Notes: generated by a model not told the origin, from the letters alone. A stretch of 63,848 nucleotides of DNA, filler included, from Calcarisporiella thermophila CBS 279.70 (GCF_041956535.1; 8 parts of 8 records of this genome joined end to end with filler, not necessarily neighbours in it); one strand, 5' to 3'. Positions 10,621-63,848 are shown, numbered from the whole stretch's first letter. A program made the numbers and translations.

Positions 10621-10637
10621 CTCGAATCAAATGTAAA

Positions 10638-28080: not shown

Positions 28081-28755
28081 TTGCTACTGGGCTACCTCCG
28101 AGCATACGCCACGTTTGGAACTGATTAAACCAGAACCCTCCTTTGCGTTTGAGCTTGGCAGTGGAGAACGTGGTGGCAAAGATGGCTGTACCGTAGCCTT
28201 CTGGAGCATACTTTCCTGTCAGGTTAAGAAGTGAGATGCATGCCCAAAGGGATACCGTCGGGTCCGATGCTGGTTTCTTCATTTCTCTTGCGAGTTTGGG
28301 AAACCATGATGCGAGTAGGGCAGTTGATTGTTGTCTAGGGAGAATGAGACCTAGGCCTCCCTCCTCTCGCGTTTTAGAAAGGAGGCTAAGACTGATCTGC
28401 GGGCCTCGTCCATCCCATAGAAATTGTCGTAAGATTGTGTCCAGTTCTTTGAAGAAATATTCAGGAGGGTGGATCACTGTGGCGACGTACCATATCCTGG
28501 ATAGGAGTCAGGAGTTGATCAGGTGAACTTTCCCTGGCATGCTGAGTTTCCGGATTTTCCACGACTGTATCGTCTGCCTCAGTTTGGATAATTGGCTCGT
28601 GTAGTATGCCTCACTTGGGTGTTCTGGCATAAGTGTGGGGTTGGCTGCTGACGGAAGATAGATTGGGATGCCGAGGCATGTAATTGCTCCCCCTGCAGGT
28701 ATGTATTCGCATCCAGGGTCGATGGAGGTGCGGGCTGCAGGGCTCTCGAGTCTAA
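28081..28755 (-). mobile_element. 5'-truncated L1/Tx1-like LINE, RT C-terminal region
   Basis: CLGIPI..WKIRKLSMPGKVHLINS..QFLWDG..REEGGLGL. The G-rich tract at 27905-27980 may be its 3' UTR across the gap. Confidence 0.85.
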
Positions 28756-29098
28756 TTTTTTTTTTTTTTTGATCAATCAATGGAAACTTTTATTTAATTT
28801 CCATATATTACATGAAGTTAATGTCAATGGACTTAACATGACAAGATATAGGTCCTTGATCGATAGACATTCAATCGATATGCGTGTATCGTAGTTGTCG
28901 TGAATAGCATGTACGTGAAACCGATGTAATCTTTTGTACTTATCTTAAGGGCAATCTTTTCAATAATCAAGACTCTGCTTCTGATCAAGTGGATAGCAGT
29001 CACAAGCTAAGAGTAAGTGCTGGTGGGGGAGGTGGGATTCGAACCCACGCCGTTCTCATCGGCATCCCAGGGATAGTCCACTACACTAACCCTCCCCC
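28756..29098 (-). mobile_element. tRNA-derived SINE, copy 1 (~330 bp plus poly(A))
   Basis: A box TAGTGTAGTGG, B box GGTTCGAATCC, GGGGGAG/CTCCCCC-ACCA head, LINE-like tail and poly(A). Near-identical to 61406-61743. Confidence 0.85.
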
Positions 29099-29172
29099 AA
29101 ATAGCAGGGCTTGAGGGATTACGTGACTTGGCTTGGTTGTCCTACTGCAGATATCTCGATACGATTCCAACA
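29099..29172 (-). mobile_element. Probable 74-nt LTR 5' segment beginning TGTTGGAAT
   Basis: Canonical TGTT terminus 10 nt upstream of tRNA-Asn, the same geometry as at the other three tRNA genes. No second copy in the window. Confidence 0.5.
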
Positions 29173-29182
29173 CAGCCAAATT

Positions 29183-29199
29183 GCTCTAGTGGCGTAATT

Positions 29200-29239
<40 letters not shown>

Positions 29240-29256
29240 GAGTCCACCCTTGAGCG
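29183..29256 (+). tRNA. tRNA-Asn(GTT)
   Basis: Cloverleaf with anticodon loop CTGTTAA and T-loop GGTTCGAGTCC. One T:T mismatch in the acceptor stem. Confidence 0.93.
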
Positions 29257-30369
29257 TTGTTCTATTAATACTTTTTATATTTTATTTCTTTTTTAACCTA
29301 AATAGAAGACATTTTGCAGTTCTATCGTATTTACCCATTATCATTTTTTACAAATTTGCACGTTTCCGATACACCCTCTAAATACCATCAGCTTCTCTTA
29401 TTTTGAACAGTCAACAGTAGAATTACGCTTTAGATATTCCGTAGTGCCTGGTTTCTTCGTTCGTCAGTAAAAGCTTCATTTCGCCTGTATTTTGGTGAAG
29501 CATTGGTTCATCCACAGTTGCGGTGGTGTGTATGATATGTGTTTTACAGGTAACTAATCTGAAATTAATAGCGTTGTCTATACATTCGGATTCCTCAGTG
29601 TTGTATAACTTGGAGATACCTAGTTACTCTGGCGTCGTGGTTTATGTGGCTCACAGGTATGAATTCTAGGCTATTAATCTACAAGATTTCGAAACTCACA
29701 GGGTTCTCTGGATTCAAACAATAACCTTATATTTCGGGTTTAACGTTAACAATCCGAACTACTTGCATTCATGATCGTTTTTTTGACGATTGGGAACGGA
29801 TTAAGATCGAATTGAGGATACTTCAAACCTTAATTCAATTTGTAAATACTCCCTTGCATCAACGGTTGATTTGCCGTATGTACATTTTTAATAAGATCTC
29901 TATTGAAAAACATCCTATTGATAAAAAAGTAGGGATTCTTTTATTTCAAAATTACACAGGTAATACTCCTTGACTATCTTTAAAGAAGTAAAAGCTTCGA
30001 ATCGAAATTTGTGTTTTTTTTTTTAAATAATATTATGCTTTAAACTACTACATTACATTACATAATCTGTTGCAATTCTACGGATCTAACAGGTATCAGC
30101 GATTACACATTAGGGACACTTTATCTCTGGCTAACGCACTCACCCTTTATCTGAAAAGGGCTAATGGCTCGATCCCAACATTGATTGTTACGCAGGAAGA
30201 ATTTCCTGATAAATATTTTCTAATCAATCTAATTAATTTATTCTCTGAATTTTCCTTTTGTTCTATACATAAAGTATAATTGTTCAAGAAGCAAGGTAGA
30301 GCGCAAAAAATACGTTTAAGAAAAAGGAGGCATCATATTGTTATATAACAAATAAATATCTCTAAATAT

Positions 30370-31941
30370 CTAATTTCTATCACTCTTCAGAAATTTTTCT
30401 TTCAAAAATCCAACCTCTTTCCGCATCTGAACACGCCACTCCTCCACATATTCTACTCTATCATTAGGTCCACTGTACTTATTGATCCAATTTGCTATCG
30501 CATTTTTATACTCGAGCTCTTTTTCTGCTCCAAACAAATGGTAAGCTTTTCGATTTGCAACCGGCTTTTTCTCATTTTCTAAATACTCCTGCCACATCGT
30601 TTCACGAGTGGGAAGTTTCGCTTTTCCTGAATATATTCTCGCAATAAGCAGCGATTGGTATTCAAAGAACGGGAATGGCACTACTTTAAACGGAATGCCA
30701 ACTAGAGCTAGCGTAGGGTTGTCTATATAAAAGAGGTGGAAAAATAAGCTGTGTACACGCTGTCCATCCGTCAAGAGTAGAGGACGACCATGCTTAGTCG
30801 GCACAGGAGGTGGGATGCATTGTTTTGTGTCCGTTTCAACATCTGCTGAATCGGCGATTAAATGCTTTAGGAATGGAAGAGTGTACAGGTAGCCTGTGGC
30901 ATAAATGACACAATCCACTCCCTCCATGATGCTCCCATCTACAAATTCAACAGATCCTGCTTCGAAATTATAACGTTGCACAGTAGGCTTAATTGTTACT
31001 CTGTCTCCAAATAAAGTTGGGTTATCCCCACTACTTCCTGAGGCAAAAGGAGTTCGTATGGACTGCCAAACAACTCGGGCATATTCTGATATTTCTTTTG
31101 CAATATCAACACCACTGAATCCTCCCCCAACGACCAGCACCGTCTTTGAATAGCAAAAAACATATTAATAAGCTACTTGATCCATTCAGTAGAGATATTT
31201 TTACCTTGTCGACAAACTCGTCTGGTAGCCTATAATCTTTTGAATGCATCACCTTTCGTTGTTGAGCAAACTCAGTTAAACCCTCAACCTCTGGAATATA
31301 TGGTGCATAAAAGTGCCCCGTTGCAACAACCACAGCGTCAAAACGCTCTTTCCTAATTGACCCATCTCTCCTTTTAAAGATTGTCAACATCCAACCACTC
31401 TCACCATCTTCCAATCTGTCCGTCGCATCAATCACTTCACAGTCGAACTCTACAAGTTGCGCTAAATTATTTTCATGTGCATAGGACACGAGATACTCAA
31501 GCACATCGGAATGGTGAGGGAAGAGTGTAAGATCTTCAGGAAATGGAGACTTGTAAAAGCTCATAATAGGATGTGGAAGATTAGTGTGCAGGTTTTTGTA
31601 GATTGCAGACGGGTGAACAGGTGAAGAGGCTTCAGGAACCAAAGGGGGATCAGCAACTTTCTGATGGGTACAAGGAATGGGAGGAGCTGACCCGACACGA
31701 TCGGTATAAATCCTAAAAATTCAAGTTGGATGAATTCGCTCAACAGTTGAAGCATATCCACATAAGTATGATTGTGATGTGAGTTGTTAACATACCAGGT
31801 ACCGCCAAATGTATCATTACGTTCGAAGATTTTTACTTCGAATCCATGTTGACTAAGATTTTTCGCCGCGATAATCCCAGCAGCTCCTGCACCAATAACT
31901 CCAACTCGCTTTATGATCGGGAGAGAAAAGGAATTGGTCAT
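30370..31941 (-). CDS. Flavin-containing monooxygenase (Fmo1-like), multi-exon
   Basis: GVIGAGAAG, FER..GGTW, VVATGH, FMO motif F...VMHSKDYR, VGGGFSG, YATGY. Confidence 0.9.
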
Positions 31942-32205
31942 TATGAGGGCATGAATGACGTCTGCACCAAAAGAAATACTATTAGCGCCGAGGGTTGAGG
32001 GAATAACGTGAACATGCACGATTTTAATGATGGAGGTAAAATGAAATCTGAGCTGATTGGATCGGGCGAGTGGCAAAAAGCAAAGATAATCTCGCGCAGT
32101 CACCTGGATTTTTGAACCTTTTTGCCCCGCTCGATAAGAACAAGAACACTCAACATTTTCCGCTTTTCTTTTTCCATTCTCTTTGCCTCAGCCAGCTTTT
32201 ATGAA

Positions 32206-34243
32206 ATGCAAGCTATGTTAAACGAGAAACGCTCAAGGTATATCTTTCGTATACACCAATTACTATCGGAAACTATGCATTGCACAAGAATGTGTCGTGC
32301 TCCAACCAACATTGCACCCTCGCGCAAATTCCATTCCTGCTATGGCAAGGCGAAGTTACAAGCATCATCACAACGCGGAAATTTACAAATACGGTTCTAC
32401 TTCGCTACGGCAAGCTCATTGCTGGAGTCATCGTCCGCACTATCAGCTCATATCTCAAGCCCACGCGAGGTAAAAATAGAGCCAAAAAGATAAAATTCAA
32501 ATTATCTTGCGAACCTTAATTTTGGCTAATATATTTCCACGGTTCTTCCTCTTTATATTAAAGATTGCCAAACATTTAAACGAGTACGTAATAGGCCAGA
32601 CCGCTGCAAAAAAGACCCTTTCCTGTGCCGTTTACAATCATTACACGCGGTTACGTGCCAATTTTGAGCAACTTGCTCGGCAGCATGAGGAGCAAGTACT
32701 AGAGCGGTTAAGGCAACATGACCACCATCTGTCTCCACAGGAAGGCGCGATGGTAGTGCGAGAGAGCGGCGGATTAAGCAATGCATTAATGCGTGTAGAG
32801 TCAGGATACGATGAGTGTAAATACTAATTAAGCATTTAGAAAGTGTAGATGGCCAATTTTTGGTTGTCATTTTAGTTAGGCAATCTATTCCCGTAAATGG
32901 TGGATATCCTCAGTATTCATGGACACAGGCAAATGACTTCAACCTGGAACCTCTGGAGTCTACCTCAGTGTCAGTCATCGAGAAAAGTAACGTTTTGCTC
33001 CTGGGGCCATCTGGTTCTGGAAAATCTTTGCTTGCCCGCACGCTTGCCCAGATTCTGCAAGTGCCATTTTCAATGTCTGACGCAACCCCCTTTACTCAAG
33101 CAGGATATGGTAAGTTTTCGTCCGAAATCGAAAATAGTGGCTCGTTAGTTAATTCATTGCTTCTTATTGGGCATGAAGTTGGTGAGGATGTAGAGCTAGT
33201 AATACAAAGGCTACTTCAAAACAGTGATTATAATGTTAAGCGGGCTGAGCGTGGCATCGTGTTTATCGACGAGATAGACAAGATCGCAAGGAAATCCGAT
33301 ATACACACCGCATCAAGAGATGTATCCGGTGAAGGCGTGCAGCAAGCACTCCTGCGCATACTTGAGGGAACCATTGTACATATTACAGACAAGAATGGAG
33401 GGGGGACTCGTGGTAAAGGAGCAGGGGGAGGAAGCAGTGGCGGAGGATCAAAAGATGTGTATTCCATAGACACTAGTAATATTCTATTCATATTAAGTGG
33501 AGCCTTTGAGGGGTTGGAAAAAATCGTAATGGACCGTGTTGCAAAAGGAGTAAGCATCGAAACCATATTCCAGCTTGAAACTATGGTTTATTTACCAAAT
33601 TTTGCAATAGTCAATCGGTTTCGGGGCCCCTATACACAAATCAGATGACGAGCACAAGGCTGGAAATCATCGAGGAGAGAGCGATTGGAATCCCTTATTA
33701 GAAGTGGAGCCTATTGGTAAAACGATTTTATGACCTTTGGGTTGGTCAAGTTACTTACATATACGTGACATAGATTTAATCAAATATGGCCTTATTCCGG
33801 AATTTGTTGGGAGGCTACCCGTTGTAGCTTCCGTTCGTCCCTTAAGCGAATCCGATCTCATCCGTATTCTGACAGAACCGAGGGGAGCCCTCTGCTCCCA
33901 ATACGCCACTCTACTGCGAATGAGCGGCGCAAATCTGCGCTTTTCCCACTCTAGTCTCCGTGCAATTGCTCATTTAGCTCTTCGCAATCGCACAGGAGCA
34001 CGTGGTCTGAGGCGGATCATGGAAAATGTCCTTGTAGAGGCAATGTATCGGGTCCCCGAGTCCGAAATACGTCACGTCGTGGTTACGAGAGAGGTTGTAA
34101 GAAGTGGACAAGAACCTTTGTATTTTACAGAGGGTGAAGAGAATTTGGTGGAACAAGTTCTCAGAGAAGATGACGTGGCAGAGCACGGGGATGGGGAAGA
34201 GGTGGAAGAAAAGATGAGAATTTGTATAAAGGGGGATATTTGA
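32206..34243 (+). CDS. clpX: Mitochondrial ClpX (Mcx1-like) AAA+ chaperone, multi-exon
   Basis: [68 protein letters not shown]. The start codon is uncertain. Confidence 0.9.
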
Positions 34244-34430
34244 TATCCAATGTTTGGAACGGATAGTGAACTTTTAATGCAAATGACAAATGAGTTACTT
34301 TTTTTTTCAACTAACGCTGCTCATTCTAACTTTTTATCTAATTTTTTTGCTATTTTATTGTACAATAAACACACATATGGTGGCCTCCGTTATCAATAAC
34401 AAGTCTAATATTATAATACAGTGAAGTGTA

Positions 34431-36701
34431 TCACTCTCCCTCAATGGTATGTGTTCCTCGCTCTCCACTGTCTGTCATTCGGGCAGTCCTCGCTCCAAAC
34501 TGTACTGCCCGCTTCCATTCTCGACTCGTTAACTCGAGACCTAGTTTCTGCGCCAATAATCTAAGTAGCAGTTTCTCTCCTACACCCCTAGGATATCGAG
34601 GGTCTGCCTTCAAATTCACTGGGAGAGCACAGAGAAAAGAGGTGACACGAGCACCAAGATAGGGAAATCGAACCTCCTTGCCGTGATCGGAGATAATACG
34701 ATCATCTCTTCCGAGATTTCTCTCAGATATCCGATCGTAATCCAATTTAATCTGTAGCACAAGCAATGGAGTTGAATTGGATAGGAATATCTGGCACATT
34801 ATTCCACTTGCAATGTTACCTCGTTTACCAGACGTTCCCATCCCCCTAATCTGAACGCTTCGCGATGTCTTGAGTATCCCCCGAGTTGCTCATCAGCACC
34901 TAGCCCTGAAAGTAGAACTCTTGCATTACTCTGATACCCTATCATACTCTTCAAATAATAATGGATCAATTTCGTCCTATTTTATATTTCCTCTCGGCAA
35001 CTAAATTACCCACATTGGTAGATGGACAGTAAACACTGCCTTTTCCTCTCGCAGCAAACCAAAATGCCATTGCAATGCTCTAAGTATAATGAGAAAAGTA
35101 GGTTATATACCAATTATTCCATTTATAGAGTATTTAAGCAGCGTTACTCACCAAATCCATCACTGTGGAAGAAGGAGCCATTAGAGACATTATTTCTCTT
35201 CTCTTCTCCATTGCTTCTTCGTATGGTATATTGATCTCCACCAGCCTCCATTCCCGTGGAGCCTCGCGTTTCAACTCCTCAATCCCTTGGCGCGCGGTTT
35301 TCCGGTCGGGAACGGCGTATGGATCGGACTCTATCTTTTTCTTATTTTTCATAGTACGCGGATTTTCAAACGCAACATTAAGCAAGTCGATAGGCTCAGT
35401 GGGTGGAAGATAGCGATGCGCTAAGATTGCAAGGCACATACAATCCAGTCCACCAGAGAAAAGAATGGCAATCCGCGGACTCATTGGATCACTAATGATA
35501 TAGCATATGTATATAGATTAAGTCGGAATATGGATAATGGGCTAGAAGTTCGATTACCCTGGGTTAGGTACGGTAGTCACACGCCTACATACGGAATCAC
35601 CAAGAATCTCCTCAAAGTTTTCAATAGCCATTTCCATAGGATGTGAAAGTGAGGGAAAGTTTGAATCCTTTTCATTTGAAGCAGGTGGGAGGAGATCCTC
35701 TGGTGCTGGTATTGACCTATTCATGTCACAATATGAGGAAGTCTAATTGTGGGGTTAAATATAGTGGAGGCAAGGTCTAAGAATTTCGAAAATACTTACA
35801 AGCAGCTGATTAATTTCTCCATTCACGGTTGAGGATTTCCAAGAATAATGTTTCAATGAATGCTCAAATTCGGCTATCAATAGCTATTGAACACTTATAA
35901 GATCATAAATTATATGAAAGAAAAACAAAAATCGGAACATACCTTTTCTGAATTCATCAATGTTTTTATATCCAAGCAATACACACCCGAGGCAGGCACC
36001 TCTTCAAAATTTAATTTTGAACTAGATACACCTACGGAGGATAAGACAAATAATTCGTCTTCAACGGGACGGTGCCAAAGCATCGAGCGTCGACCTAATA
36101 TATCCCGAGAGAACCACAATTTCCCTTCTGTATTCTGATAGTAATAAAAATATAGTATACATTATCCGACAACATAATAATCCTATAAATATGCAACCTG
36201 CCAGTAAACAAACGAAAATGGCCCCTCTATTTTAGATATAGTTTGAAGTACGCCTTCCTCTTTATTGTCTCCTTTATTTTTTTGGAGCAAGTTGTATACT
36301 ACTTCGGTATCATTCTCCTCCTGTGCAACCTGTTACAACATGTAAATATATTCTCTTTGAAAAACAAAGGATATTTCCCACTTACATTAATCCCATCGAA
36401 AACTTCTCCATTCCAACAGAATACATCCCCGTTTTCACCTACTATAGGCTGAGGTTTTAGATCTCGACCGCGGAGGTGCAAAACACAGCCAAAAAACGAA
36501 AGGCAAGACTGTCTGGTTCCAATTAACTGCACTTCATGGCTTTTTTGAAAATCAGGTCCTACAGAGGGATTCTTTTCATCAGTCCATCCTTTCGTTCTGA
36601 ATTCTTCAAGAAGCCTTACCTCGCTTTGTGTTGGCTAGCTTTAATGTGTCCCAATCCGGTATGCTATGTGCATCATGAAGCGCTAGGAGTATTCCGCACA
36701 T
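34431..36701 (-). CDS. ASNSD1: Asparagine synthetase domain-containing protein (ASNSD1/YML096W-like), multi-exon
   Basis: MCGI N-terminus, [57 protein letters not shown]. Confidence 0.9.
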
Positions 36702-37205
36702 TGCAACGAAAGTAATAACAAAAATTCAGTCACATCAAATTTGAAATTCAAGCGTTTTCAAAGATTGTTCAGATAAATTTTCTCGGTTAACTAGTAAAAC
36801 AAACTGGCACTATATACAAATTTTAAGTTATCGAAAATTCAACAATGTGGTTCTCTATTAAGCTGTTATTATTGAAGAACAAATAGATCCCAAATATATA
36901 CGTCTTGATTATCCTCAATTATGCACTCATTTATAGCATAGCATTCCACGGCATTGATAATTGGGAGCAAACTCGTAATTATTTGGAAGGATATATAGGA
37001 ATAGGTGACTAGGGGTTAAAGCAAAAAATATATAGAAAATAAATACTATTAGCAGCCTAATGTTAAGGATATAAGGAAGAATTAATCGGTAAAGGACTTA
37101 AAAAACTGCATCTTCCTATAACTCCTAAGCTATTCCATCAGCTCTATCATTTATCTGGAAAAAGCATTACATAATAAGATGACTAATTATCAATCATGTT
37201 AATTC

Positions 37206-37484
37206 TCAATATATTAAGAACTTACCACTCAAACCACTTGCATTGTAGATCTCACTGCTACGCATTATTCTCGCACTTTTATTTCGCTTTAGTGATGATA
37301 TCCATAACCCAGAGTTTCGATGTGGGGAGGTGTTCGATCGCACATATACTCCATCTGCGTAATTAGTTTTATAATAATCTGGATCCTGTGACTGAAATTC
37401 ACCATTTAGCACAGTGCGGCGTTTAGTATATTTTTCAATTTTGAAAAATTCGTAGGTTGCCCTGATTTTCTCCTTAATGCCCAT
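37206..37484 (-). CDS. Small hypothetical protein (~90 aa; the 3' end is probably spliced)
   Basis: ATG-initiated ORF with protein-like composition in a gene-dense block. GTAAG donor near its end. Confidence 0.5.
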   Translation of the reverse strand: MGIKEKIRATYEFFKIEKYTKRRTVLNGEFQSQDPDYYKTNYADGVYVRSNTSPHRNSGLWISSLKRNKSARIMRSSEIYNASGLSGKFLIY

Positions 37485-39017: not shown

Positions 39018-39105
39018 ACTATTGGTATATAAAATAAAAAATCTTTATTCTATTATCATAGCTATCTACTGTTGAAAATAAATATTTAAAAAGAGGTAGT
39101 TAATA

Positions 39106-39176
39106 TGCATGGTCCGGGAATCGAACCCGGGTCTGCCGCGTGGCAGGCGGCAATTATACCACTAAACCAACCATGC
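39106..39176 (-). tRNA. tRNA-Gly(GCC)
   Basis: GCATGGT/ACCATGC acceptor stem, CTGCCAC anticodon loop, GGTTCGATTCC. Confidence 0.95.
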
Positions 39177-39186
39177 GAACATACAC

Positions 39187-39609
39187 TGTTACGGGAATAT
39201 CGGTATTTCGTACAGACAGTCATAACTGCGCCACTACAAGCCAAAAAAAACTTCTTTTCTTCTTAAATTTTATGCACAATTAGTTTTTGTTACCTTTATA
39301 ACCTTTCGGCAAATTACTAGCGCTTTGAAAATTTTATTCAAGTTTGTTCTGTTTTGTTAAACTAGTTGTTTAACCAGTTTGTCTATTCAGTTCGTTTAAC
39401 CAGTTTGTTTAATCGGTTCGTTCTATTTAGTTTAATTTTGTTATATAAGAAGAGATTCAAACGTGAGTGAACGGGGAGGCGGATTAGTTTTTTTATATTG
39501 AGTAATAGTCTTGAAATTTATTGTCTTATTTTTTTCTTTTTTAAGAAAATCTTTCATTTGTTTTCTTTACGTACAAATATTCACGATAAACCCCAAAACC
39601 CACGTAACA
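39187..39609. mobile_element. Solo LTR (family A), 10 nt upstream of tRNA-Gly
   Basis: Perfect TGTTACG...CGTAACA inverted termini, flanked by ACAC/ATAC. Confidence 0.85.
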
Positions 39610-39613
39610 ATAC

Positions 39614-40953
39614 TTTCGTGTGCTCAAGATAGTTTAAGGAGCTATTTGAAAAGAGATTGAAAATATAAAGAAACTAATAATACCCCACGGAAAGGCTAAA
39701 AAGAGCGTGCGAACGTCGCTATAACGATTTTTCCTTAGAATGGGAACACGGATACCTTATCCTGCCCCCCAACCTAGTAGAGAAAATCACGAACTGTTCT
39801 GCCATACCCCGACAACACCCGCCTCCTCGTTTCCCACTCCACCTTTGTCACCTGGCTGGCGCGCCCGTCTCGGAATACTCCACTCGACAGGGAAGGCACT
39901 TCCAGCGAAATGGCTCTCCGGAACCAGAAACACTGACGCCCCAATCCTGGCCAGAGGTTGCATCCACGGCAAAGGAATGGGAAAAGGTCTGGACCTCCAT
40001 TCAAAAACGGCCAACATTCCCAAAACACAGCACACTACGCTGGCGAATCCTCGTAGAGCGTGTAATTACAAACTCGACATTCCCTGGTCATGACCCGAAA
40101 TGTACCCGCTGTAACGCCCCGAGGGACACCATCCGCCACACCTTCTTCGAATGTCCCGAACTCACATCAGTGTGGCATTGGACGGAAAGGTGTATCAACA
40201 CCATTTCAGGCCCCCTAAACACTCAGGTGCTGAGCCCCAGGAACCTCGTACTTGGCGACCTACCAGAAGCCCCGAGGACAGTAAGACACGCGGCTCAAAT
40301 CGTCTTCGATTCGGTGCTATGGCAAATCCATCGGGACCGAATCGCCTACCATTTCGAATGCACTCGAGCATCACCCGAGACAATCATACTCCGTGCCAAA
40401 ATGGACATCGAGGAGGCTATCGGAGGTGAACTGATAAAGGCACGTAAAAGACGAGAGATAGAGTTATTCCGAAGAAGGTGGTGCACTCAGGGAGCGGTAA
40501 TAGAAAGTTCGGATAGAGCAAGACTAAAACTGGAGTGACGAAGCAACCCTTCCTCTCTCCCAATCCGCTCTTTCCCTCCTCCTTACTTCATACCTTTCAC
40601 CAAATACCCGATCACTATATACATCTAATTTACCCTTTATTCCCCCCTTTCTTATTTCATTGTAATCATTAAACTCTTGTAAGCTACGGAAACTAATAAA
40701 AGTCTCCGTTGATTTATCAAAAAAAAAGAAACTAATAATACTCTTGTTACTTCTCTTGTCCTTACAACACTTAAGATCTAAAGACTATTTATACACTTAA
40801 ATTACGTAAAGTAAGTCACAGAAAATATAATCCGAAGGCTGAACCAAAGTCTCGCTACGGAATATTAAATAGTAACAAACTATTGTCCGTGAAACCGCTA
40901 CTATTCGCCTATTTATCCTAGCTTACAGCATATCCCTTCTCTAGCACACGACA
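39614..40953. mobile_element. Solo LTR (family B) interrupted by a LINE
   Basis: TTTCGTGTGCT...AGCACACGACA termini (one mismatch), with ATAC on both sides. Confidence 0.8.
39684..40727 (+). mobile_element. 5'-truncated L1/Tx1-like LINE (zf-RVT, C-terminus, 3' UTR, poly(A))
   Basis: WEKVW..FPKHSTLRWRI..CTRCNAPRDTIRHTFFEC..LWQIHRDR. TSD GAAACTAATAATAC at 39670-39683 and 40728-40741. Confidence 0.92.
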
Positions 40954-40957
40954 ATAC

Positions 40958-41023
40958 TGTTACGAGATAATTTGTTTTTGTACGGGGAAGCCACAGAGGC
41001 AGTCACATAGACATTCAGGAAGC
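40958..41023 (+). mobile_element. Family C LTR 5' end (runs into gap)
   Basis: Matches 3226-3291. Confidence 0.85.
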
Positions 41024-42476: not shown

Positions 42477-45400
42477 GATAAATTGCAGAAAAATTACAGA
42501 AGTTATTTGGAAATTATAAGGAAACTGATATGTTCACCAAGATTTCCACATTGTTCCCTTAAATTTTACCTATACGCACTTATAGGGCACTTGTTGTATA
42601 GTACGACTCGCAGTATTCCTTTTTTATGTGACGTTTAATTTTACTCTTCATTGTAATGAATTAATATCACGTATTTTTCATATTTTAACTGAACATAATT
42701 GGAAGGTTTATTGCCCTAGATAGATGATTTTAGTTTGTAAGATTTCGCCAACTTACATTGACCTTTTAATGCCAACTCCCAGTAAGAAGTCGGGGGGTAA
42801 GGGATTAACTCGGAAACACATGCAGGAAAATGACGTAAAACTAACATACAGAAAGTGAGCAATTCCCTATATTGATTATCACATATATAGAAGATAATGG
42901 TGCTCAATTACACCATGATTATAATGATATCATGCCAAAAATATATAGAATTATTTATTCAATTAATATTTAAAATACTTTTTAATGCTGCATTAGCATT
43001 TACAAATCATGGAATTAGGTTCATAGAAAAAAATGTCCGAAATACTTTTTATTCAAAAAAATTGGCCACGTACGGTATCTTAAATTTTTTTTCCAAAATA
43101 TTTTCGCAGTAGAGTGGCTTATAACTTTCGTGAATTCAGAGATTGAACGTCATCATAAATATTTCTCATATTAGAGTTATATTATAGAGTTATAAGATGA
43201 GATTGTTAATATATTTCGAGGACAGACTTCAATGATAAAGGGCAATTGAAAGTTGGATTGCCTTAATAATCAATGAACCCCATTACATGCTGTTGCTTTT
43301 CAATCCGTATTAAGTAAGTAAAAGTTAAATAATAATAATGTAGGCAAAATTGGAGCGACAGTGTTCGAGACTCTATCGACAGCTTCACCAGAAATCTCCA
43401 GGGTAATAGATTTGTTTGTAGGATGTTGCTTCGAGAGTTATGGTCCAGCTTGTAATCTTTGTTAGAGGAACTCCTTCCAATTATAAATGGAGCTTGAAAG
43501 AACCATGGCTAAGTTTTCTCACCAGAGCTTGCCGTGGATTCATCTCGTCAATTCTTTCATCGACAGTACTTCGGCAAAAAAGTTGGGAGTATTAAGACAC
43601 GGAGGCAACGCTTTGAAATATATTTTGACGATCCAAGATTATTTCAGGAAGGAGCCTAAAGTTGGAACCTGATTATCGTGTGTATTATTTTAGCCCTATA
43701 CCGCGTAAGGCAATCCAATTCATCAGAAAATTGGGGCATCACTTTCAGCACGTTATACTGATACCAACATCCATTATCTCTAAGTTTTGGACATTATGTA
43801 CTTTAGAAAAGGATCAAATTTGTTTTGTGAATAACAGGGCATGCAGCAGATAATACTCCAACGATAATCGAATCCGGAGCCTGCGAACGAGAGAGGAGTA
43901 TTTTTAATATAGCCTTCAACTGTTTCATAGTCTGCCTACAAATGTTGTTAACCTAGCCAATTCCACAGAGTGCTGAAGGCCCTAACATATTGGTGGAAAT
44001 ATACTATATTTCCATTCTACTTGTTCCACTGGGCTCGGGCAACTTTAGTGAAAATACACTTGACTGCAATACGATGGACTGAACTGTTCCAAGTACTCAC
44101 AGTTTTAAATAAGAATAATAACTTATAGTTATACGGTACAGTGTTTATTGATTTTCTCTGCTAATTAGTGGATTTGAAACTAATTCATCGTCAACATGGT
44201 TGCAATCTTTACGGAATATGAAATCCTAGAGTAAATAATACTACTGTATTTTTATAAATTATACCAGAAATCAAATTCCTCAATCATAGTGAAAATAGGA
44301 ATTCTTATCACTACAATAATAATTGAAATACGAAAATAATAACGAAATATAATACAGTGGTTTGCAGCTTATGTTTCCAGAGTTTGCAAACCCAATATAT
44401 GCAAAGCTAGAGAATTAGGTTGGGGGGGGGGGGTCTGAGTTCTTTTTATTGAGATCTAAGGTAAAGAAGAGTGATATTCTACAAGGTAATATCGTGATTT
44501 ACCTACTAATTAAATAGAGAAATTGAAGAGAAAAAAGAGGTAGATTTCTTCATTAGATTCAAATTAATTTCAATACTTGTGTATTAAAGTGATGGTACAT
44601 ACGGACTAATTTTGCGATTGAATAGTAATATTAATATACAGATAATTGTGATGGAATGCTAAATAGCAGTATAGTCTTTCATTTACTACCTGGCTCGTAT
44701 CTTTTCACCTTCATTATTAGGAATGATGCCAGCTGTTGCAAACTGCTGGATTGCGTAAATGACGATTATTTTGACAACCTGCATTTTTATTACAATTTGG
44801 AAGAAATTTTGTTATTAAAAGTTAAACGAAAGATTGGTTGTACATCAACTGAAAAAAAAAATAGAAATTTCAAAAGTTGTGTTGTGAACTACTATGTCAA
44901 AGGAATGAAATCATAACGTTTAGAATTTGTCCCCCAATTGAGATAGATAAATGTATTGTAGACACGTGACCAAAGTATATATTTTGGAAGTTAAAAGGAG
45001 AAATATAAAAAACAGACAATATGAATGACAACAAGCTTTTAGAGGAAAAAGCAATGCGCCAATGTCGTGAAACAACCGCTCCGTATGAATCCCGGAATTC
45101 TACTAAAACCTAGGATAATCTCCGATCCGCCTTCAGATCTTGAATAAAATGTGAAACATATACAATTTCTACGCCTATTCAATTTAGATGTATAAATTAT
45201 ATAAATCGAATATAAAATCAGGGAAAATTAATATATAATTCAGGAAGATGAAATAGGTAAACATTTATAAGCAAAAAATCCACGAAAAAAAGCGATTAGA
45301 AACAAACCATCAGCATAATCACGAAGAGCATAGATAGGGGACCAATATACATCATCATGAGCAAGAGCAGCACAAAAGCGTCGTTTCACGAAAGGACCAT

Positions 45401-47731: not shown

Positions 47732-48719
47732 AAGCTCGACATTAGGATAGTATTTTTTGCAAATTCTCAAGTATTTACTAAAGCAATATAAGTAATAAGT
47801 GAACTAATGTCTTTTACTGATCTCTGGAATTATGTATCATTAGATATAAATTTTAGTTTGCTAATTGTTAAATTAATAGTTATTTTTGCAAATCTAAGTT
47901 TTTAACTTGGAGTAAGAATCGAAACCTTTATGTTACCTTATTAACTTCTATAGTTTATATGGGATCCCAAGTTAATTTTCACAACTCAAAATAGGCTATA
48001 TTAACTAGATGCCAGCTAAATAAGTCGTAATATCATTCTAACATTAAGTTGTATTTAGTCAAATAAGGTTTATCCCAGGGATTCTTTAACTATCCTTTAG
48101 CTCTCTATTGCTCTTTTCCACACATTTCAGAATATTCACAATGTTAGAATGTGGATTTGTAATCGGATATTCACTAAAGCACTTAACCATTATAGTTTTA
48201 GACATACACTCTATATACTAAAGATGATGTATCGCAATTATTATTAGAGGCAAGGCTAAATAAACAAATAGAATAAGATAAGAGATAACTCTAATTCACA
48301 AAATATACCAATAAAACCACCAAAATGTACATCAAGCTAATAATATATTATTAAAGTAAGCCACTAAAACTAAGCCTTCCCCCCTTACCATTCCATTAGC
48401 TCATATTGCGCCAACTTTCCTCAAAACAACTTCCAGTAATTAATAATCTAACTCATGTAACTCCATGCCTCAAATGATACTCAGCAATGGTTTTCTTGGT
48501 CAACAATATTAATAGGTTTCTTGCCGCAAACCACGACATCCCCTTAATTTCCCGAAATATGACATAATATTAGCTTATCCTTTTGATTCCTAAACATCCC
48601 GAAAAGTAAAAGCGTAAATTGATTTAGCATAGATCGAGCTAAATTGAATGTATAAATATGATGTTTCAACAACATATTTATCTGCTAACTGACATACTCA
48701 GCTTGAATACTAACAAACA

Positions 48720-52014: not shown

Positions 52015-52082
52015 CTTGAATCTTGAACCTTGAACTCTGAATATTAATCTTGAACCTTGAACCGAATCCCGAATCTTGAATC
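52015..52082. repeat. Degenerate short tandem repeat (CTTGAAY-like units)
   Basis: cttgaatcttgaaccttgaac... at the edge of the N gap. Confidence 0.6.
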
Positions 52083-52099
52083 CGTATTGTTACAATTGC

Positions 52100-52928
52100 A
52101 GGAGAGAGGTGGCATCGCCCTGATTTCAAAACCTCTCCAAGTGGTCGCCCTCGAGTTTTGAGTGAGAAGCAAGAGAGAAAGATAGCTACACTACTATCAT
52201 CGGGTCAGTGTAAAAATGCAACTGCAGTTAGAAAGTATCTCAAGGACGAATATGAGCTCGATGTGTCCATCGGTGTTGTGAGGCTAGCAGTCAAACGTAA
52301 CGAACTGCTTACCCGTGTGCGACCAAAGAAGCCTCTTCTCACAACTGCTCACCGAAGACGGAGGATGGAGTTTGCGAGGAAGTATAAAGATTGGACTGTG
52401 GATGATTGGAAGCGAGTAGTATTTTCAGATGAAACGCAGATTACCTTCGTGAATTCAACTGTAAGAGAATACTATTATAAGCACAAAGGCGAGCCACTTC
52501 GCAGTCGCCATATTAGGTCAATGCTAAAACACGGTGGTGGGTTTTTGATGGCGTGGGGCTGCGTCACTTCACAGGGCATCGGTAATTTGTGCCGTATCGA
52601 TGGAGGGTTCGACTCCGTATTGTACACAACTATCCTCAGTGAAGACTACCTTAAATCGCTGGAGTATTATGGGATCCCTAAATCACAAGTCATATTCCAG
52701 CATGACAACGACCCCAAACATACCTCCATTATCACTCGTGAATGGTTGCGGAATAATAGGATAGAGGTACTAGAGTGGCCCTCCCAGTCTCCAGATCTTA
52801 ACATTATGGAGCACATGTGGAGTGAGTTGAAGCGAAGGCTCAGGTATTACCAAAGACTGCCAAAGAATATGACTGAGCTATGGGAACGAATCGAGAAGGA
52901 GTGGGATAGCATAGATCTTGAACCCTAA
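52100..52928 (+). mobile_element. Tc1/mariner (DDE) transposase, truncated at both ends
   Basis: GRPR, KKPLL, VVFSDET, FQHDNDPKH, WPSQSPDLNIMEH. Confidence 0.92.
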
Positions 52929-57214: not shown

Positions 57215-58368
57215 ATGAAATTCGCTGATATTCGAAAGCGGGACATTTATAACTACCTCGATTGCACCGAGTCCCCCCTCCCGCAAACCCCAAGACTGTT
57301 GAAGTTGCTGGATGAAGCGACTAAGAATCAAACCATCATGGATGACCTTTACAGACCTCTAGCTTGCTATGGAGTAGGTTTATCTGTGGCCACCGTCATC
57401 GCGTCCATGGCTGCGCTTCTAACGGGGAGCACTCATACTCTACGCAAATGGACGCCAGTGCTTCTCTATTCGCTAGGCATCACGGACATTGTGTATGGGC
57501 AGATTAAGGTGATGCAGTTGAATTCGCACGGCCTCAGCTGCGTCCTCATCGAATCGATGTCCGTTCTGTTTTACATTGGTGCCAGCGTAATCCAGTATAT
57601 GTTCCTCCTAGCTCGATATATTGAAGTCTATGGCTTCCACGACAACAAGAAGCGTGTCATACTCGCCCTGATACTTAACCTCGCCTACACAGCTTGTATA
57701 CCAGTTTCCATGTCCATGAACAGAACCACCAGGAATGAAGCGACCGGAGAGTGCGAAGTATTCCACCCCCCTGTTTCTGCCTATATGCCCACCGCAATAG
57801 GAATCTTAACATCGGCATACATGACCGGCATATTCGTGGGTCCTCTCCTCGGAAGAAGAGGCAGCGGTCACCAGCGAGAAACCATCACTATCGGCAAGAT
57901 TCTGCTAATCACTAGTATTCTTGCCACATTCTCCGCTGGAGCCTTCAATGTGACCCTTGCCACTCCATTGGGTCGTTTTGCCTCGGTTCTCTCCATGGCA
58001 GACCTTGCGTTCAACTATGTGATGCTCTCAATTCCGTACTTGTAAGCTGATGATGTTAAACTCTTTTATATCCTTACCATTAATTCCAAATGATCGGGTA
58101 TAGTGTTGCCCGGATTCGAGCGGCCGAAAAAATGCGATCGATGGTGTCGAGAAGTTCGGAAGATTTCCCTCGCGGGCAGAATGACTACAACGATCTCCAG
58201 ACTACGGATGGTGAGCTGCACGAATCCGAATACCCCAAAATCCCTGGTCCCGTCTATTCTTCTGACAGTCCTGCGGCAAAAGACATTGAAATCACAATAG
58301 CATCCGACTGTGATCCCGGTGTTCCAGTGAGGGAAAACTCAAATACTACCTTATTGAAGTGTTCCTGA
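57215..58368 (+). CDS. GPCR-like multi-pass (about 7TM) membrane protein, 2 exons
   Basis: About seven hydrophobic segments, Cys before TM3 and in the TM4-5 loop, intron at ~58042-58102, acidic C-tail. The start is uncertain (57215 or 57338). Confidence 0.55.
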
Positions 58369-60035
58369 AAACGACGGTGCGAATTTTCAATCTTGCATTC
58401 CACTCTTGCAATATCTTACTCTTTTGAGGAGAAATATCCCCATGGCACGCTCTCCGGCTTATATCGACACTATCGGAGACCAAAACGCGCTTGAGATTTT
58501 TAGCCTATTGAACTCTATTTTCGTCAGACGCCAATAATGTGTTTTCTCAATCCTCTATTCTTCTACCACTCGCAATGTCCGTTGGACTTTAATTCAGTGC
58601 GGGGTAAATAAAAGCGCTGTTCTTCTCTCTAAATGCTTCCGAGTGTGGTGAATGCCATCGCAGCAAAAATTGAGAGCCAACCTTACCAACTCTATTTTTC
58701 CCATTCATACACATCGCATTAGTGTGCGCACAGAGTAAAAAGAAAAAGTAATATAAAACTTCTCAAGAATTACTCTTTCGGCTGGGTCAATTTTTCTTTT
58801 ATGGCTTGTGGTACTTAGATTAGGCTCGCCCCAGTGAATGCCTTAACTATTTCAACTAATGAGTATATAGGTGCCTCACCAATGAAATTCTTGCTCAAGA
58901 ATTGATCCTATGAGTTCTCTCTGCCTTAATGATCGCATCGGAACATGCCATCTTCTAACGCTACTATCATATCTCATCATCCTAATTTCTATTAGACGCA
59001 ATAAATTCTAATTGTTCGCATGGAACTGTAGTATTATAGGGACACATTCAGACAATTGTAACCTGGCATCAACGGGGCTTGAAGTCAGAAACGGCTTCAG
59101 TGTCAATGACATTAGTCCTGGGATTTGACAATTGACTATTCGTCTTTGTGGGAAAATGTCAATGCCTTTTAGGATGGTGCTCTAACTCGTTTCTGTCTTG
59201 CATATTAATTTACTAAAGCATAAGTGTATCCAAATGCAGTTTAACTTTTTGCCTGCTTATAGATATATTTCTCCTAGTATCAAGCATCGAAATGCCACCG
59301 TCTTTCTTATATTCTCACTCCACATGAAAAACGTTTCCACTTCAGTACTTGGACAACTTTCACGCNNNNNNNNNNNNNNNNNNNNNNNNNNNNNNNNNNN
59401 NNNNNNNNNTTAATTAATTAANNNNNNNNNNNNNNNNNNNNNNNNNNNNNNNNNNNNNNNNNNNNAAAGATTACTGCAGGCGATAATTGAACGAGGAGTT
59501 TTTTAAAATGCTGCTTTTTGATAATAACTTGAATTATCAAAAATCGATGTAATAGAGGATATATTTTAATAAATATTTCCTTGTGCTGTTTGCTATACAA
59601 AAAGAAATAAAGTTCAATATGTCTTTCTAATTCTCTTCTGACTCAAATGAATCCAAAGCTATTGAAGCTCCGATTAATTACTCGGTACCTGCTAAAAAAT
59701 AGATTATTCCTACCAAGTTCTGAATTGATGGATTTTGAATTAAGCTCAAACTCTAAACTCGCCACAATGAGTACAAGCGCTACATCGACAATGATAGTCG
59801 AAGTAAAATTTTCGAGGTAACTAGCCACCACCACGCCAGCGATATTGAATACACTATGATTCATTTTTTTTTATTGCTTCTGTGGAGATTGCCCAATGCC
59901 TTCAGCCTCATTCTGACATTTTATGCTCTGACTTGTAATAAACCAACGAGATATACATTTTATTGATACCGATATCCTTATGCTATCCATGTTCTATCGA
60001 AATAATAAAAATTCAAAACCTTACATTACAAATAT

Positions 60036-60400
60036 TCACAGAATGCATCCGCCACTCCACCGCAGTCCTCCCTGATCAGAATAATCAAAATAAGTGACTG
60101 GCTTCAGAACCATGGCTCGTTGAACGCGGTTTAAGCTAGTTTGCTGCTTCACCTCTTCTGGTTCAATCCCCTCCATTACCTCTATGCCCGCCATAGAACC
60201 AAATGTATATGGAGGTTCCTGCATAGATTTTGTCGAGCAGTTTAAACGTTTTTGCTCGGACTATGAAAATTGAGCAAAGAAATTAATCAATGACTGTCAA
60301 ACACTTAGTTCGTAAATTTGGGGTGTAATCAATGTACCCTGTCCAAAATGTCTGCTCCTTTTCGCTTGACTCCAATCTGCTGAGCTTCCACAAGTACCAT
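60036..60400 (-). CDS. Small hypothetical protein, 2 exons
   Basis: MVLVEAQQIGVKRKGADILDR, then a GTACAT...CATAG intron, joined in frame to SEQKRL...WSGGCIL*. Confidence 0.45.
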
Positions 60401-61405
60401 TTCTTTGGCAAAGTATTTCGTGTAGAAATACAACGGAGTTAAATAAAATAAATATAAAATAGAGGGAGAGGAACAAAAATTTAAGGAAGAGAACAGAAAT
60501 TTCAGGAGTATCTCAATAGGCAATTAAAAAATATTATTATACCCCTGGATTAGTTATGGAGAGTTTTTATTTCACAAGAAAAATGGCCAATTATTTCGGA
60601 TCTTTTTATCAGGGATCGAATTTCGATGGTTGAAACAAGCAGTGTGAAAATTGATTTCCAATCCTTATCAAAATTACCCTAACCTTTAGTGAGTTCTAGG
60701 CTCAATTTTTAGAATTGAAAATGAGCTGTGAGAGAAGCCAGATATTTTGTGGCTCATCGCACTTCTACTCCCTCTTGAGGCTTTATCACTGCGTCCAATC
60801 CGGAGAATATTGAGTAGTCCCTGTACTGGACTCCCATGCGTGGCAATCTACATATTCCGACCCTCTCTTTAGTAAAAAATGGGAAGGGCTGATGGCCGGC
60901 GTGTATTAATTATGACATGCTCTATTATCACTGAAGTTTCAGCCATAACATCTTCAATAAAGGAAGACAAAAAATGAGAAAGCTAAACAACAACCAAACA
61001 TTCATGCACATTGTTTTATTTTGTTCACATAGCGTCCTCACCCTAGACTCAAGCTGTAAGCTCTGCAACGCTGAGCACGGAATACACAATTAACTGAAAG
61101 GCACCGAGCTCAAAGTGGGAGCCAATAAGCTTAGGGAAAATGTATGCGATGGTTTTGGATCTGTGGCGTTGTACAGGTGTCATCCATCTCAGCAATCTTC
61201 TGCGCTGCAACCTGCTCTCATGCCGCAAACGAATTTATCCGAACTGTACTAGAAATGGCTGAATAAACTTTGATCCTAAATTTCTGGAATTAAATTATTT
61301 AATTTGTTATTCTATAAAGAAACTCGCCACTCTTACATAAAGAAAGTGTATACAATAAACTTAAAAAGCGTGTTAGAAGCTTTTTATCAATAATCAAAAG
61401 TGTTA

Positions 61406-61743
61406 TTTTTTTTTTTGATCAATTAATGGAAACTTTTATTTAATTTCCATATATTACATGAAGTTAATGTCAATGGACTTAACATGACGAGATATAAGTC
61501 CTTGATCGATAGACGTTCAATCGATATGCGTGTATCGTAGTTGTCGTGAATAGCCTGTACGTGAAACCAATGTAATCGTTGTACTTATCGTAAGGGCGAT
61601 CTTTTCAATGATCAAGACTCAGCTTCTGATCAAGTGGATAGCAGTCACAAACTAAGAGTAAGTGCTGGTGGGGGAAGTGGGATTCGAACCCACGCCGTTC
61701 TCATCGGCATCCCAGGGATAGTCCACTACACTAACCCTCCCCC
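61406..61743 (-). mobile_element. tRNA-derived SINE, copy 2
   Basis: Perfect 16-bp TSD ATAATCAAAAGTGTTA (61390-61405, 61744-61759), poly(A), A and B boxes. Confidence 0.92.
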
Positions 61744-61924
61744 ATAATCAAAAGTGTTAAGTGCGAAGGGAAATGGAAAAACAATTAGATTATAATCATC
61801 AAACTGAAAAAAAGTTCTGTTACANNNNNNNNNNNNNNNNNNNNNNNNNNNNNNNNNNNNNNNNNNNNTTAATTAATTAANNNNNNNNNNNNNNNNNNNN
61901 NNNNNNNNNNNNNNNNNNNNNNNN

Positions 61925-62066
61925 AATCTCGTTTTCCGTGATTCGACGGTCTTTTGTAACTTGGCTCTCAATTCTTCGAAGTAGCTTTCCCTCGGGAAGA
62001 TGCTCTTCGTGTTAAAGGGTATTCCCAGCAGAGTGAAGGATCCCTCTTCCTGTATATAGCGGCATC
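61925..62066 (-). mobile_element. 5'-truncated LINE RT fragment (older insertion)
   Basis: CRYIQEEGSFTLLGIPF..YFEELRAKLQKTVESRK, homologous to CEYIPAGGAITCLGIP at ~28670-28715. Confidence 0.75.
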
Positions 62067-62088
62067 GTCCTCGAATGTCAAGGATCCT

Positions 62089-62601
62089 TTTTTTTTTATC
62101 AATGCCGAGTCTTTATTGTATAGGAAGACTCTAAAATACAACTGTTACATTATTATAAGCAATAAAGTGAAAGGGAAGCCAAAGTTAAAACTTTGGGTGA
62201 TATCGTAGATCGAAATGATATGTTGGTCATATCGACTTTCAGCTCAAATAGGTAAGGGAATGGTGAAACTCAACTAACTGTGGATATCAAAGGATAGCAT
62301 GAGAAGTTGGGTGGGGAGTAAACAAATGGAAGCAGAGGATAGGAAGGGGATAAGATAGGGGTTACTGCGTTATCCCAGTATCAGTGCCGCTCCGATCGCT
62401 CCTTCTCTAACCGCACCCAGCTTGCACCATCTTTTTCGAAACTGTTCGATTTGCCGGTTTTTTCGTGCTCGGATTAGTTCGGCTCCTATCACTTCCTCAA
62501 TATCTAGTTTGGCCCGGCTGATGATTATTTCAGGTGAGGCTCGGGTGCTTTCGAAATGAAAGGCGATCCGATCTCGGTGGATTTGCCACAACACCGAGTG
62601 C
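62089..62601 (-). mobile_element. 5'-truncated young LINE (C-terminus, 3' UTR, poly(A))
   Basis: TSD AATGTCAAGGATCCT at 62074-62088 and 62602-62616. Encodes SVLWQIHRDRIAFHF..RWCKLGAV. Confidence 0.92.
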
Positions 62602-62666
62602 AATGTCAAGGATCCTCGGCTCGATGGCCAACTCCTCATTGGTTAAAACTACCACACTTCACAACA
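62602..62666 (-). mobile_element. 5' segment of a family E LTR, 11 nt upstream of tRNA-Val
   Basis: Begins TGTTGTG. Its continuation matches window positions 8-29. Confidence 0.65.
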
Positions 62667-62677
62667 TTATAGTGTTA

Positions 62678-62751
62678 GTTTTCGTGGTGTAGTTGGTTAT
62701 CACGTCTGTCTAACACACAGACGGTCTCCGGTTCGAATCCGGACGAAAACA
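62678..62751 (+). tRNA. tRNA-Val(AAC)
   Basis: GTTTTCG/CGAAAAC stem, TCTGT-CTAACAC-ACAGA anticodon arm, GGTTCGAATCC, downstream T5 terminator. Confidence 0.95.
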
Positions 62752-63604
62752 GTTTTTAAATTTTTAATCAAATAATAATAATAATACAATTTCAATATTG
62801 AATATCAATAGAATGAGCAAACCATCTTCCAGTGTTTTAATTTAATCATAAAATGTTAATTTCTATATATTTTAAAATATAGTTCTATTTCGATATAATT
62901 TACTTACGAAATTTAGCTAGATTATTACATGAATTTCTTACCAATATTGAAAATATAAAGTAATCCAAAGCTCCGTGGATTGTGCTCGTGGACCTGTTTA
63001 AAGCACATAACTATCAACGCAAAAGACCTCGAGTGCAACCCAAAGTGTACTCGTAATGATTTAAGTGATACAATTCAAAAATAAATTTTTGAATGCTCAA
63101 ACCTGCAGCAGTGTGGCAGTGAGCGAAGAGGTGTATCCACATCATCACAGGCCGCGAGCATGTCCAGGTATTTACCCTTCAATATCTTATATTGGGATTT
63201 TTACACGTAAGCTATTAAAAGAACGGTAAAAAACGGTAAGAAATGTTACCCGAATTATGCATGACACGAATAGCTGGCATTATACCAGGATCATAGTGGA
63301 TTCTGCGCCAGCAAAATCGTATATCTTTTGGGGCATTCACCGGCCATGCCAAATATAATATTGAAAATACCACAGAAGTCGAATTGATAAGAGAAAAAAC
63401 AGCAAGATATCGAGCAATTCCGAACGAGGGGGAAATATTAGAGTGGGGCGATGGAGAAGTAAACTGAAAGAGATTCACTATATTGGAAAGACGCAACAAT
63501 ATCTCTATTTTTACACTTTACATTTCTTATATTCTCTTTACAGTAAATGAGGGATCAGGATTCAACAAAAATATTTAGAGTTTAGAACATAATAGGAAAA
63601 TAAA

Positions 63605-63675
63605 TGCGTTAGCGGGGAATCGAACCCCGTCCTTTTCCTTGGAAGGGAAATATTGTACCAGTCAACTACTAACGC
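63605..63675 (-). tRNA. tRNA-Gly(TCC)
   Basis: GCGTTAG/CTAACGC stem, TTTCC-CTTCCAA-GGAAA anticodon arm, GGTTCGATTCC. Confidence 0.93.
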
Positions 63676-63689
63676 ATCAAATCACAGTT

Positions 63690-63760
63690 TGTTATGAGGA
63701 TATTGGCTTTTGTTACGGAAAAGTCACATAAGCAGTCACTCAGATACTAGGGAGGTGAAG
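63690..63760 (+). mobile_element. Diverged family C LTR 5' end, 14 nt upstream of tRNA-Gly(TCC)
   Basis: TGTTATGAG..TTGG.TTTTGTTACGGAAAAGTCACA..GCAGTCAC aligns with 3226, 4197 and 40958. Confidence 0.8.
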
Positions 63761-63848
63761 GAAAATGATCTCTTACGCCAATGTCGCCAAGAAACGCACT
63801 GGACAAACCAGTCTCCAACACGACCCCCCAATTAAACGCTCCTACTAA

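Follow-up and report, generated by a model that had tools for sequence, protein, structure and literature searches.

What places retrotransposons in front of tRNA genes in the early-diverging soil fungus Calcarisporiella thermophila (Mucoromycota), and what sets the distances at which they come to lie? The question is raised by one 63,848-nt stretch of DNA from strain CBS 279.70 (hereafter the window), which holds four tRNA genes and within which all distances given here were counted; it contains eight 100-nt linkers and one gap of 973 nt, across which distances are unknown. An earlier note on this DNA had described a two-register system directed to tRNA genes, with long terminal repeats (LTRs) next to the genes and long and short interspersed nuclear elements (LINEs and SINEs) further upstream. 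The overall pattern is real and non-random. By analogy with known elements, its best explanation is probably that LTRs at 10-14 nt and L1-like LINEs together with a SINE at about 76-84 nt are both placed by contact with the RNA polymerase III (Pol III) complex of the tRNA gene, the former in a Ty3-like and the latter in a TRE5-like manner.

The tRNA genes were called by ARAGORN and Rfam in agreement. LTR borders were set by hand and then verified by termini and flanks. The genes and the segments directly upstream of them are:

29183..29256, plus strand: tRNA-Asn(GTT) gene (ARAGORN, Rfam)
29099..29172, minus strand: 74 nt beginning with TGTT, candidate LTR head or native flank, 10 nt from tRNA-Asn; no second copy
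39106..39176, minus strand: tRNA-Gly(GCC) gene (ARAGORN, Rfam)
39187..39609, plus strand: complete solo LTR, TGTTACG...CGTAACA, 10 nt from tRNA-Gly(GCC); flanks ACAC/ATAC; no non-LTR insert
62678..62751, plus strand: tRNA-Val(AAC) gene (ARAGORN, Rfam)
62602..62666, minus strand: likely LTR head, 11 nt from tRNA-Val, resuming at 62067-62088 behind a LINE
63605..63675, minus strand: tRNA-Gly(TCC) gene (ARAGORN, Rfam)
63690..63757, plus strand: LTR head related to family D4, 14 nt from tRNA-Gly(TCC)

Counted from the mature tRNA starts at 29183 (plus strand, Asn), 39176 (minus, Gly-GCC), 62678 (plus, Val) and 63675 (minus, Gly-TCC), the tetranucleotide AACA (TGTT on the opposite strand) ends 10, 10, 11 and 14 nt before the mature tRNA, respectively, and does so at all four genes. 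The background of AACA in the same 5-nt register is 0.026 per site for the whole window, and all four occurrences would arise by chance with a probability of 4e-7. This statistic alone is no proof of LTRs, because in yeast tRNA genes the motif TCAACA is known to span the start of Pol III transcription (PMC6673722). The same motif speaks for an over-counted LTR tier, in which AACA at Asn, and possibly at Val, would be a native start motif and the DNA upstream of it would not be an LTR; the LINE tier would be unaffected. The Asn flank TTCCAACA is similar to TCAACA, its 74 nt have no other match anywhere in the window, and at Val, on the empty site, a LINE described below (LINE-B) has a frame that remains open until about 20 nt short of the tRNA gene. 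Both Gly cases, however, are LTRs by structure or family: the proximal LTR at Gly-GCC is 423 nt long with inverted termini, and the head at Gly-TCC matches family D4, which is present three further times in the window (z 17-21). The Val head is tied by a match of 20-22 nt to the start of the first contig (contig 1), which continues into an LTR end, a primer-binding site and gag-protease, and an L1 profile at Val did not align upstream of the segment encoding the end of the reverse transcriptase (RT). On balance, over-counting is unlikely, if by no means negligible. An LTR that ends no more than about 20 bp from the mature tRNA, as in Ty3-type elements, is demonstrated at both Gly genes and is likely at Val, while at Asn the candidate head is unproven and may be native flank. 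The claim that a TGTT LTR terminus precedes all four genes thus survives in its spacing and at both Gly genes; at Val it hangs on the 20-22-nt link, and at Asn on 74 nt without a match.

Other routes to tRNA genes and LTRs were less productive. Relaxed ARAGORN settings gave many intron-bearing tRNA calls in the window, which were dropped as Rfam gave them no backing, and an automated LTR search for terminal repeats with exact flanks returned chance pairs only and was not used.

The second tier consists of non-LTR elements, among them a family termed LINE-A, further LINE families and a SINE:

28756..29098, minus strand: SINE with a tRNA-like head ending in CCA, a LINE-A-type tail and poly(A); 5' end 84 nt from tRNA-Asn
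28081..28755, minus strand: 5'-truncated LINE-A from the end of the RT domain onward, directly behind the SINE poly(A)
61406..61743, minus strand: second SINE copy, 96% identical, with a 16-nt target duplication; 81 nt from a contig end reading TGTAACA
39684..40724, plus strand: 5'-truncated LINE-A with zf-RVT, poly(A) and a 17-nt target duplication, 70 nt inside the second LTR at Gly-GCC
62089..62601, minus strand: 5'-truncated LINE-A with poly(A) and a 15-nt target duplication; 5' end 76 nt from tRNA-Val
61925..62066, minus strand: 5'-truncated LINE-B (second LINE family), end of the RT domain
63758..63848, plus strand: candidate LINE 5' end with an N-terminal motif of the type found in open reading frame 1 (ORF1), about 82 nt from tRNA-Gly(TCC)
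3300-3539: poly(A)-tailed 240-nt insert inside a D4 solo LTR, with a 16-nt duplication, at offset 74
9900..11914, minus strand: head-to-tail LINE stack of a LINE-A 3' end and two third-family pieces, entering a gap; no tRNA gene visible
about 62944..63212, plus strand: decayed LINE-A fragment, 3' of both tRNA-Val and tRNA-Gly(TCC)

Three of the four genes carry a non-LTR 5' junction in this register: the SINE at Asn begins 84 nt away, LINE-A at Val 76 nt and the ORF1-like head at Gly-TCC about 82 nt. The junction of LINE-B lies 83 nt from tRNA-Val when measured on the empty site. At every non-LTR junction upstream of a tRNA gene it is the 5' end that faces the gene. The chance of finding junctions at three of four genes is 2e-9 to 4e-5 for intervals 9-200 nt wide and the 11-14 junctions of the window, the 76-84-nt band having been picked post hoc, after the data had been seen. 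At Gly-GCC the proximal LTR has no non-LTR insert, and the insert sits in the second LTR of the stack; the placing of LINE and SINE 5' ends 76-84 nt upstream, facing the tRNA, is therefore borne out at Asn, Val and Gly-TCC and fails at Gly-GCC. The LINE call at Gly-TCC is the weakest, its basis being a frame of 27 codons that carries an ORF1-type motif (63765) and meets a stop at the window end; the motif resembles the ORF1 starts of five of 12 distant metagenome loci. At Val, the idea that all DNA beyond the LINE is LTR was dropped, since part of it proved to be the second LINE.

The LINEs are of the L1/Tx1-like kind. In the copy at Gly-GCC a zf-RVT domain at 39681-40535 scores above the Pfam cut-off, so that the RT is followed by a C-terminal zinc-binding region, and poly(A) tails, 5' truncation and long target duplications (15-17 nt at four inserts) are all present. 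The RT-end segment at 28081-28755 aligns with L1-like ORF2s, and a LINE profile of five relatives finds human LINE-1 ORF2p as its best match in the PDB. The gene model P0123 bridges the fragments at Asn and at 39684, which therefore belong to one LINE-A family; the window copies are truncated and lack the APE endonuclease, which is present in the relative P0212. An A box and a B box are present in the tRNA-like head of the SINE, which further has a LINE-derived tail (about 81% identical to the LINE-A tail over 59-66 nt), poly(A) and a second copy with a target duplication; the fold z-score, taken by itself, is weak (-1.6). The join between SINE poly(A) and LINE-A at 28745-28770 has no visible duplication and could reflect a later insertion or a template switch. 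The target duplication at 39667-39683 resembles that LINE-A copy's own 3' tail (about 40685-40700), by chance or microhomology. tRNA-Val and tRNA-Gly(TCC) stand tail to tail (62751-63605) around the decayed LINE-A, possibly an old downstream insertion of the TRE3-like kind.

A protein search with the LINE fragment gave 96 matches, of which the 18 at 58-92% identity are all C. thermophila gene models, on 13 scaffolds as told apart by their lengths. The nearest named relative of a host oxidoreductase is likewise from C. thermophila (79%). Two gene models from other Calcarisporiella loci record joins, P0121 running from a SINE tail into the third LINE and P0139 from LINE-A into the third LINE; they support stacking and are silent on tRNA genes. 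In a further C. thermophila model, P0132, a LINE-A piece precedes a stretch that looks gypsy-RT-like by eye and has no Pfam match. The look-alikes of LINE-A in the Atlas are zf-RVT clusters, and two of the top three consist mainly of Mucoromycota, which is a lead only; two weak matches from related basidiomycete yeasts are too distant for kinship. A word search with the LINE fragment found no longer relative, and the five-sequence profile found nothing in viral or prokaryote contigs. The same profile returned the 12 metagenome loci mentioned above, which are 24-36% identical to the query. Two relaxed intron-bearing tRNA calls within ORF2 of these loci were dismissed as noise, and in one locus (L012, 1483-1650) the end of ORF2 is closely followed by ORF1 of the next copy in a head-to-tail tandem.

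The first tier extends into stacks of LTRs, at Gly-GCC and in contig 1:

39614..40953, plus strand: second LTR of the Gly-GCC stack, with an 11-nt terminal inverted repeat (one mismatch); flanks ATAC/ATAC
40958..41023, plus strand: third LTR of the Gly-GCC stack, family D4; the contig ends after 66 nt
10..342, plus strand: LTR remainder after a short poly(A); over its first 20-22 nt it agrees with the Val LTR from offset 50 on, and it terminates in CATAACA
349..366, plus strand: primer-binding site, complement ending in CCA
453..2546, plus strand: gag (Ty3/gypsy-type), zinc knuckle, protease and RT start; truncated
3226..3940, plus strand: complete D4 solo LTR, flanks TATT/TATT, holding the insert 3300-3539
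3945..4192, plus strand: solo LTR of another family, flanks TATT/TATT, no insert
4197..4435, plus strand: D4 LTR head, then a LINE-A 3' fragment; junction at offset about 64-72
24021..26023, minus strand: gypsy remnant with chromodomain, away from tRNA genes and with no LINE in its LTR, an in-window contrast that stands outside the system

TG...CA termini, short target duplications, a primer-binding site and the order gag-protease-RT, with the RT start directly after the protease in 453..2546, mark the elements as Ty3/gypsy-type. The primer-binding site begins 6 nt past the LTR end and matches none of the four window tRNAs; it looks complementary to tRNA-Pro. The Gly-GCC stack has three successive LTRs with the spacer ATAC twice, and the contig 1 stack has an LTR end followed by three LTRs with the spacers ATATT, TATT and TATT. 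Spacers of 4-5 nt recur within a stack and differ between stacks (ATAC against TATT), and from this we infer successive integration at one site, with the newest copy in front. The chromodomain remnant and its solo LTR, both distant from tRNA genes, are free of LINEs; the remnant is interrupted by a DNA-transposon-like element at 26029-27890, and the solo LTR copy lies at 42657-42777. An exact search for the LTR-head pattern in metagenome contigs had no match, and gag-protease had no relative among viral contigs and no match but itself in the protein collection.

LTRs that stand further out in the stacks carry non-LTR inserts as well, at offsets from the proximal end of 74 (3300), about 64-72 (near 4265) and 70 (39684). 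Together, seven offsets inside LTR or candidate LTR heads are confined to about 65-74 nt, a clustering reproduced in 0 of 2,000,000 simulations with uniform placement, with some LTR lengths assumed and two junctions taken from one locus. All seven junctions have one orientation, pointing away from the proximal LTR end; two complete LTRs (39187 and 3945) have no insert. Neither a sequence nor a nick context is common to the four target duplications (15-17 nt). The differing nick contexts led to the rejection of sequence-specific LINE targeting, and the choice of site is therefore positional. The stacks and the inserts in displaced LTRs read as a fossil record of recurrent position-specific insertion. 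Two further details are suggestive only: the D4 head at 40958..41023 breaks the contig at offset 66, and the short poly(A) with which contig 1 opens sits at the same base of the Val LTR as the LINE-A nick.

A mechanism can be proposed in which a gypsy-type intasome would dock on TFIIIB/TFIIIC and, in the manner of Ty3 and DGLT-A, integrate at the transcription start. Every incoming LTR would land in front of the previous one, displacing the older LTR outward, and its AACA end would rebuild a start-like motif. The LINE particle would dock on the same Pol III complex, by analogy with ORF1 of TRE5-A and TFIIIB, make its first nick about 61-63 nt upstream, just past the protein-covered DNA, and finish 15-22 nt further out. 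It would land inside an LTR because an LTR usually occupies that ground, and displaced LTRs would retain the record. The SINE may use the LINE-A enzyme via the common tail and so inherit its targeting.

Alternatively, only the LTRs could target tRNA genes while the LINEs and the SINE target the LTRs, guided by a set offset from the end or by a factor bound to the LTR, so that their distance to the tRNA would be secondary. Every well-defined LINE junction does lie inside an LTR or candidate LTR head, and the Val-family LTR is nicked at the identical base at two loci. Three junctions (3300, about 4265 and 39684) are in LTRs that do not now adjoin a tRNA gene, and the LTR-end offset is as tight as the tRNA distance, the junction spread being 3.2 nt when referenced to the tRNA and 3.5 nt when referenced to the LTR (n=5), which is equal within noise. 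These last two points weigh directly against placement by the Pol III complex, as do several others. There are only four tRNA genes on a gapped scaffold, and the sequence does not include the tRNA gene that contig 1 should have on its left. No anchor is visible for the second SINE or for the LINE stack at 9900-11914, and a decayed match to one LTR family at 48055-48162 is remote from any tRNA gene. The earlier note had stated that no insertion is visible 3' of any tRNA gene, which is contradicted by the decayed LINE-A at about 62944-63212. The window contains no full-length ORF1, endonuclease or integrase, and none of the 12 metagenome loci has a tRNA gene, most of them ending inside the element and four reaching at most about 520 nt before ORF1. 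Aiming at LTRs, on the other hand, sits badly with receiving heads that are unrelated in sequence and differ in nick context, with hits confined to the tRNA-proximal LTR end and with the sparing of chromoviral LTRs; if the Asn flank is native, the SINE there lies at -84 without any LTR. We consider it improbable. Of the initial two-register proposal, the registers and the orientation bias stand and the displaced LTRs add further cases, but measuring from the tRNA and from the LTR end are not separable, and one or two of the four LTR calls are possibly native start motifs.

Tethering may also be dispensable altogether, if cutting by the LINE endonuclease falls on whatever DNA is first exposed where the Pol III complex or the first nucleosome ends, and selection purges other inserts from a gene-dense genome. 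The lack of a nick sequence preference would fit, and ordered upstream nucleosomes at yeast tRNA genes shape Ty1 insertion (PMC5911963). Passive access nevertheless fails to account for a single orientation in seven of seven junctions or for a band about 10 nt wide, and long AT-rich intergenic stretches of the window have no young LINE-A or SINE copy, so that this explanation, too, has a small chance of being correct.

Placement by the Pol III complex could be part of something broader, which we offer tentatively: a widespread, as yet undescribed fungal L1-like lineage docking on that complex, with at least two LINE families, a SINE and several Ty3-like LTR families sharing every tRNA gene of Calcarisporiella at two registers and each locus recording the order of arrival. 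If true, Calcarisporiella would hold the first LINE-SINE pair outside amoebae that targets tRNA genes position-specifically.

Beyond these elements, the window holds pieces of Tc1/mariner-type transposases at 18457-18827, 23470-23870 and 52080-52928, the last with DDE_3 and a helix-turn-helix (HTH). The frames at 12404-14681 and 20415-23063 are presumably Crinkler-type, judging from N-terminal motifs.

Among known systems, the LTR tier is closest to Ty3 (Saccharomyces), Tj1, Tyl3/Tyl6, Tca8-beta and DGLT-A, which likewise are Ty3/gypsy-type LTR elements at the Pol III start, here 10-14 nt before the mature tRNA. It differs in its Mucoromycota host, in the stacking of several LTR families per site and in a primer site that we assume to be tRNA-Pro-like. 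Spacers here are mostly 4 nt, compared with the 5-bp duplication of Ty3 (PMC6673722). Ty3 and DGLT-A integrate at the Pol III start site (PMC5911963, PMC6101501), the former through contact of integrase with TFIIIB and the latter through RNase H and Tfc4; the integrase and RNase H of the Calcarisporiella element are not in the window. Taken alone, this tier carries Ty3 behaviour into a new phylum, as might be expected. Fungal L1-like LINEs with a strong site bias are also known in Grem-LINE1 (Mucor circinelloides) and Zorro3 (Candida albicans). Grem-LINE1 differs from the LINEs at tRNA flanks in being pericentromeric, and the main text of the preprint does not contain the word tRNA (bioRxiv 10.1101/706580); Zorro3 targets poly(A) tracts (PMC7175516), whereas the target duplications here are of mixed sequence. 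No fungal tRNA-targeted LINE or SINE is described in the literature searched, though subscription journals or Repbase might contain one, and in Table 1 of PMC5911963 the tRNA-targeted non-LTR elements all come from dictyostelids and the LTR elements all from ascomycetes and Dictyostelium. The pattern appears to be undescribed in fungi.

The second tier has its counterparts in TRE5-A/B/C of Dictyostelium discoideum and NLTR-B of Polysphondylium pallidum, which are also L1-type, lie upstream of tRNA genes with the 5' end toward the tRNA, are often 5'-truncated and have passengers mobilised in trans (PMC3159450, PMC5006619, PMC5911963). TRE5-A inserts about 50 bp upstream of tRNA genes in the same orientation (PMC3159450). 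A fixed distance and orientation are likewise found here at three of four genes, but the register is about -76 to -84, against -40 to -54 for TRE5 and -39 to -64 for NLTR-B (Table 1, PMC5911963). Further differences are the fungal host, the landing inside LTR heads and a passenger that is a tRNA-headed SINE rather than a deleted copy. The likeness to TRE5 is one of layout: contact of ORF1 with TFIIIB would hold here by analogy, and the LINE-A copies lack most of the RT domain. With its different register, a fungal case would test whether LINE proteins have converged on TFIIIB and how distance is set, and a SINE that inherits the aim of its LINE would show targeting passed in trans to a Pol III passenger; non-LTR enzymes that seek safe harbours are also of interest as gene insertion tools. 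The two-tier layout is itself known from Dictyostelium, where DGLT-A and TRE5 make up the tiers, and what is new in Calcarisporiella is the host, the register and the SINE.

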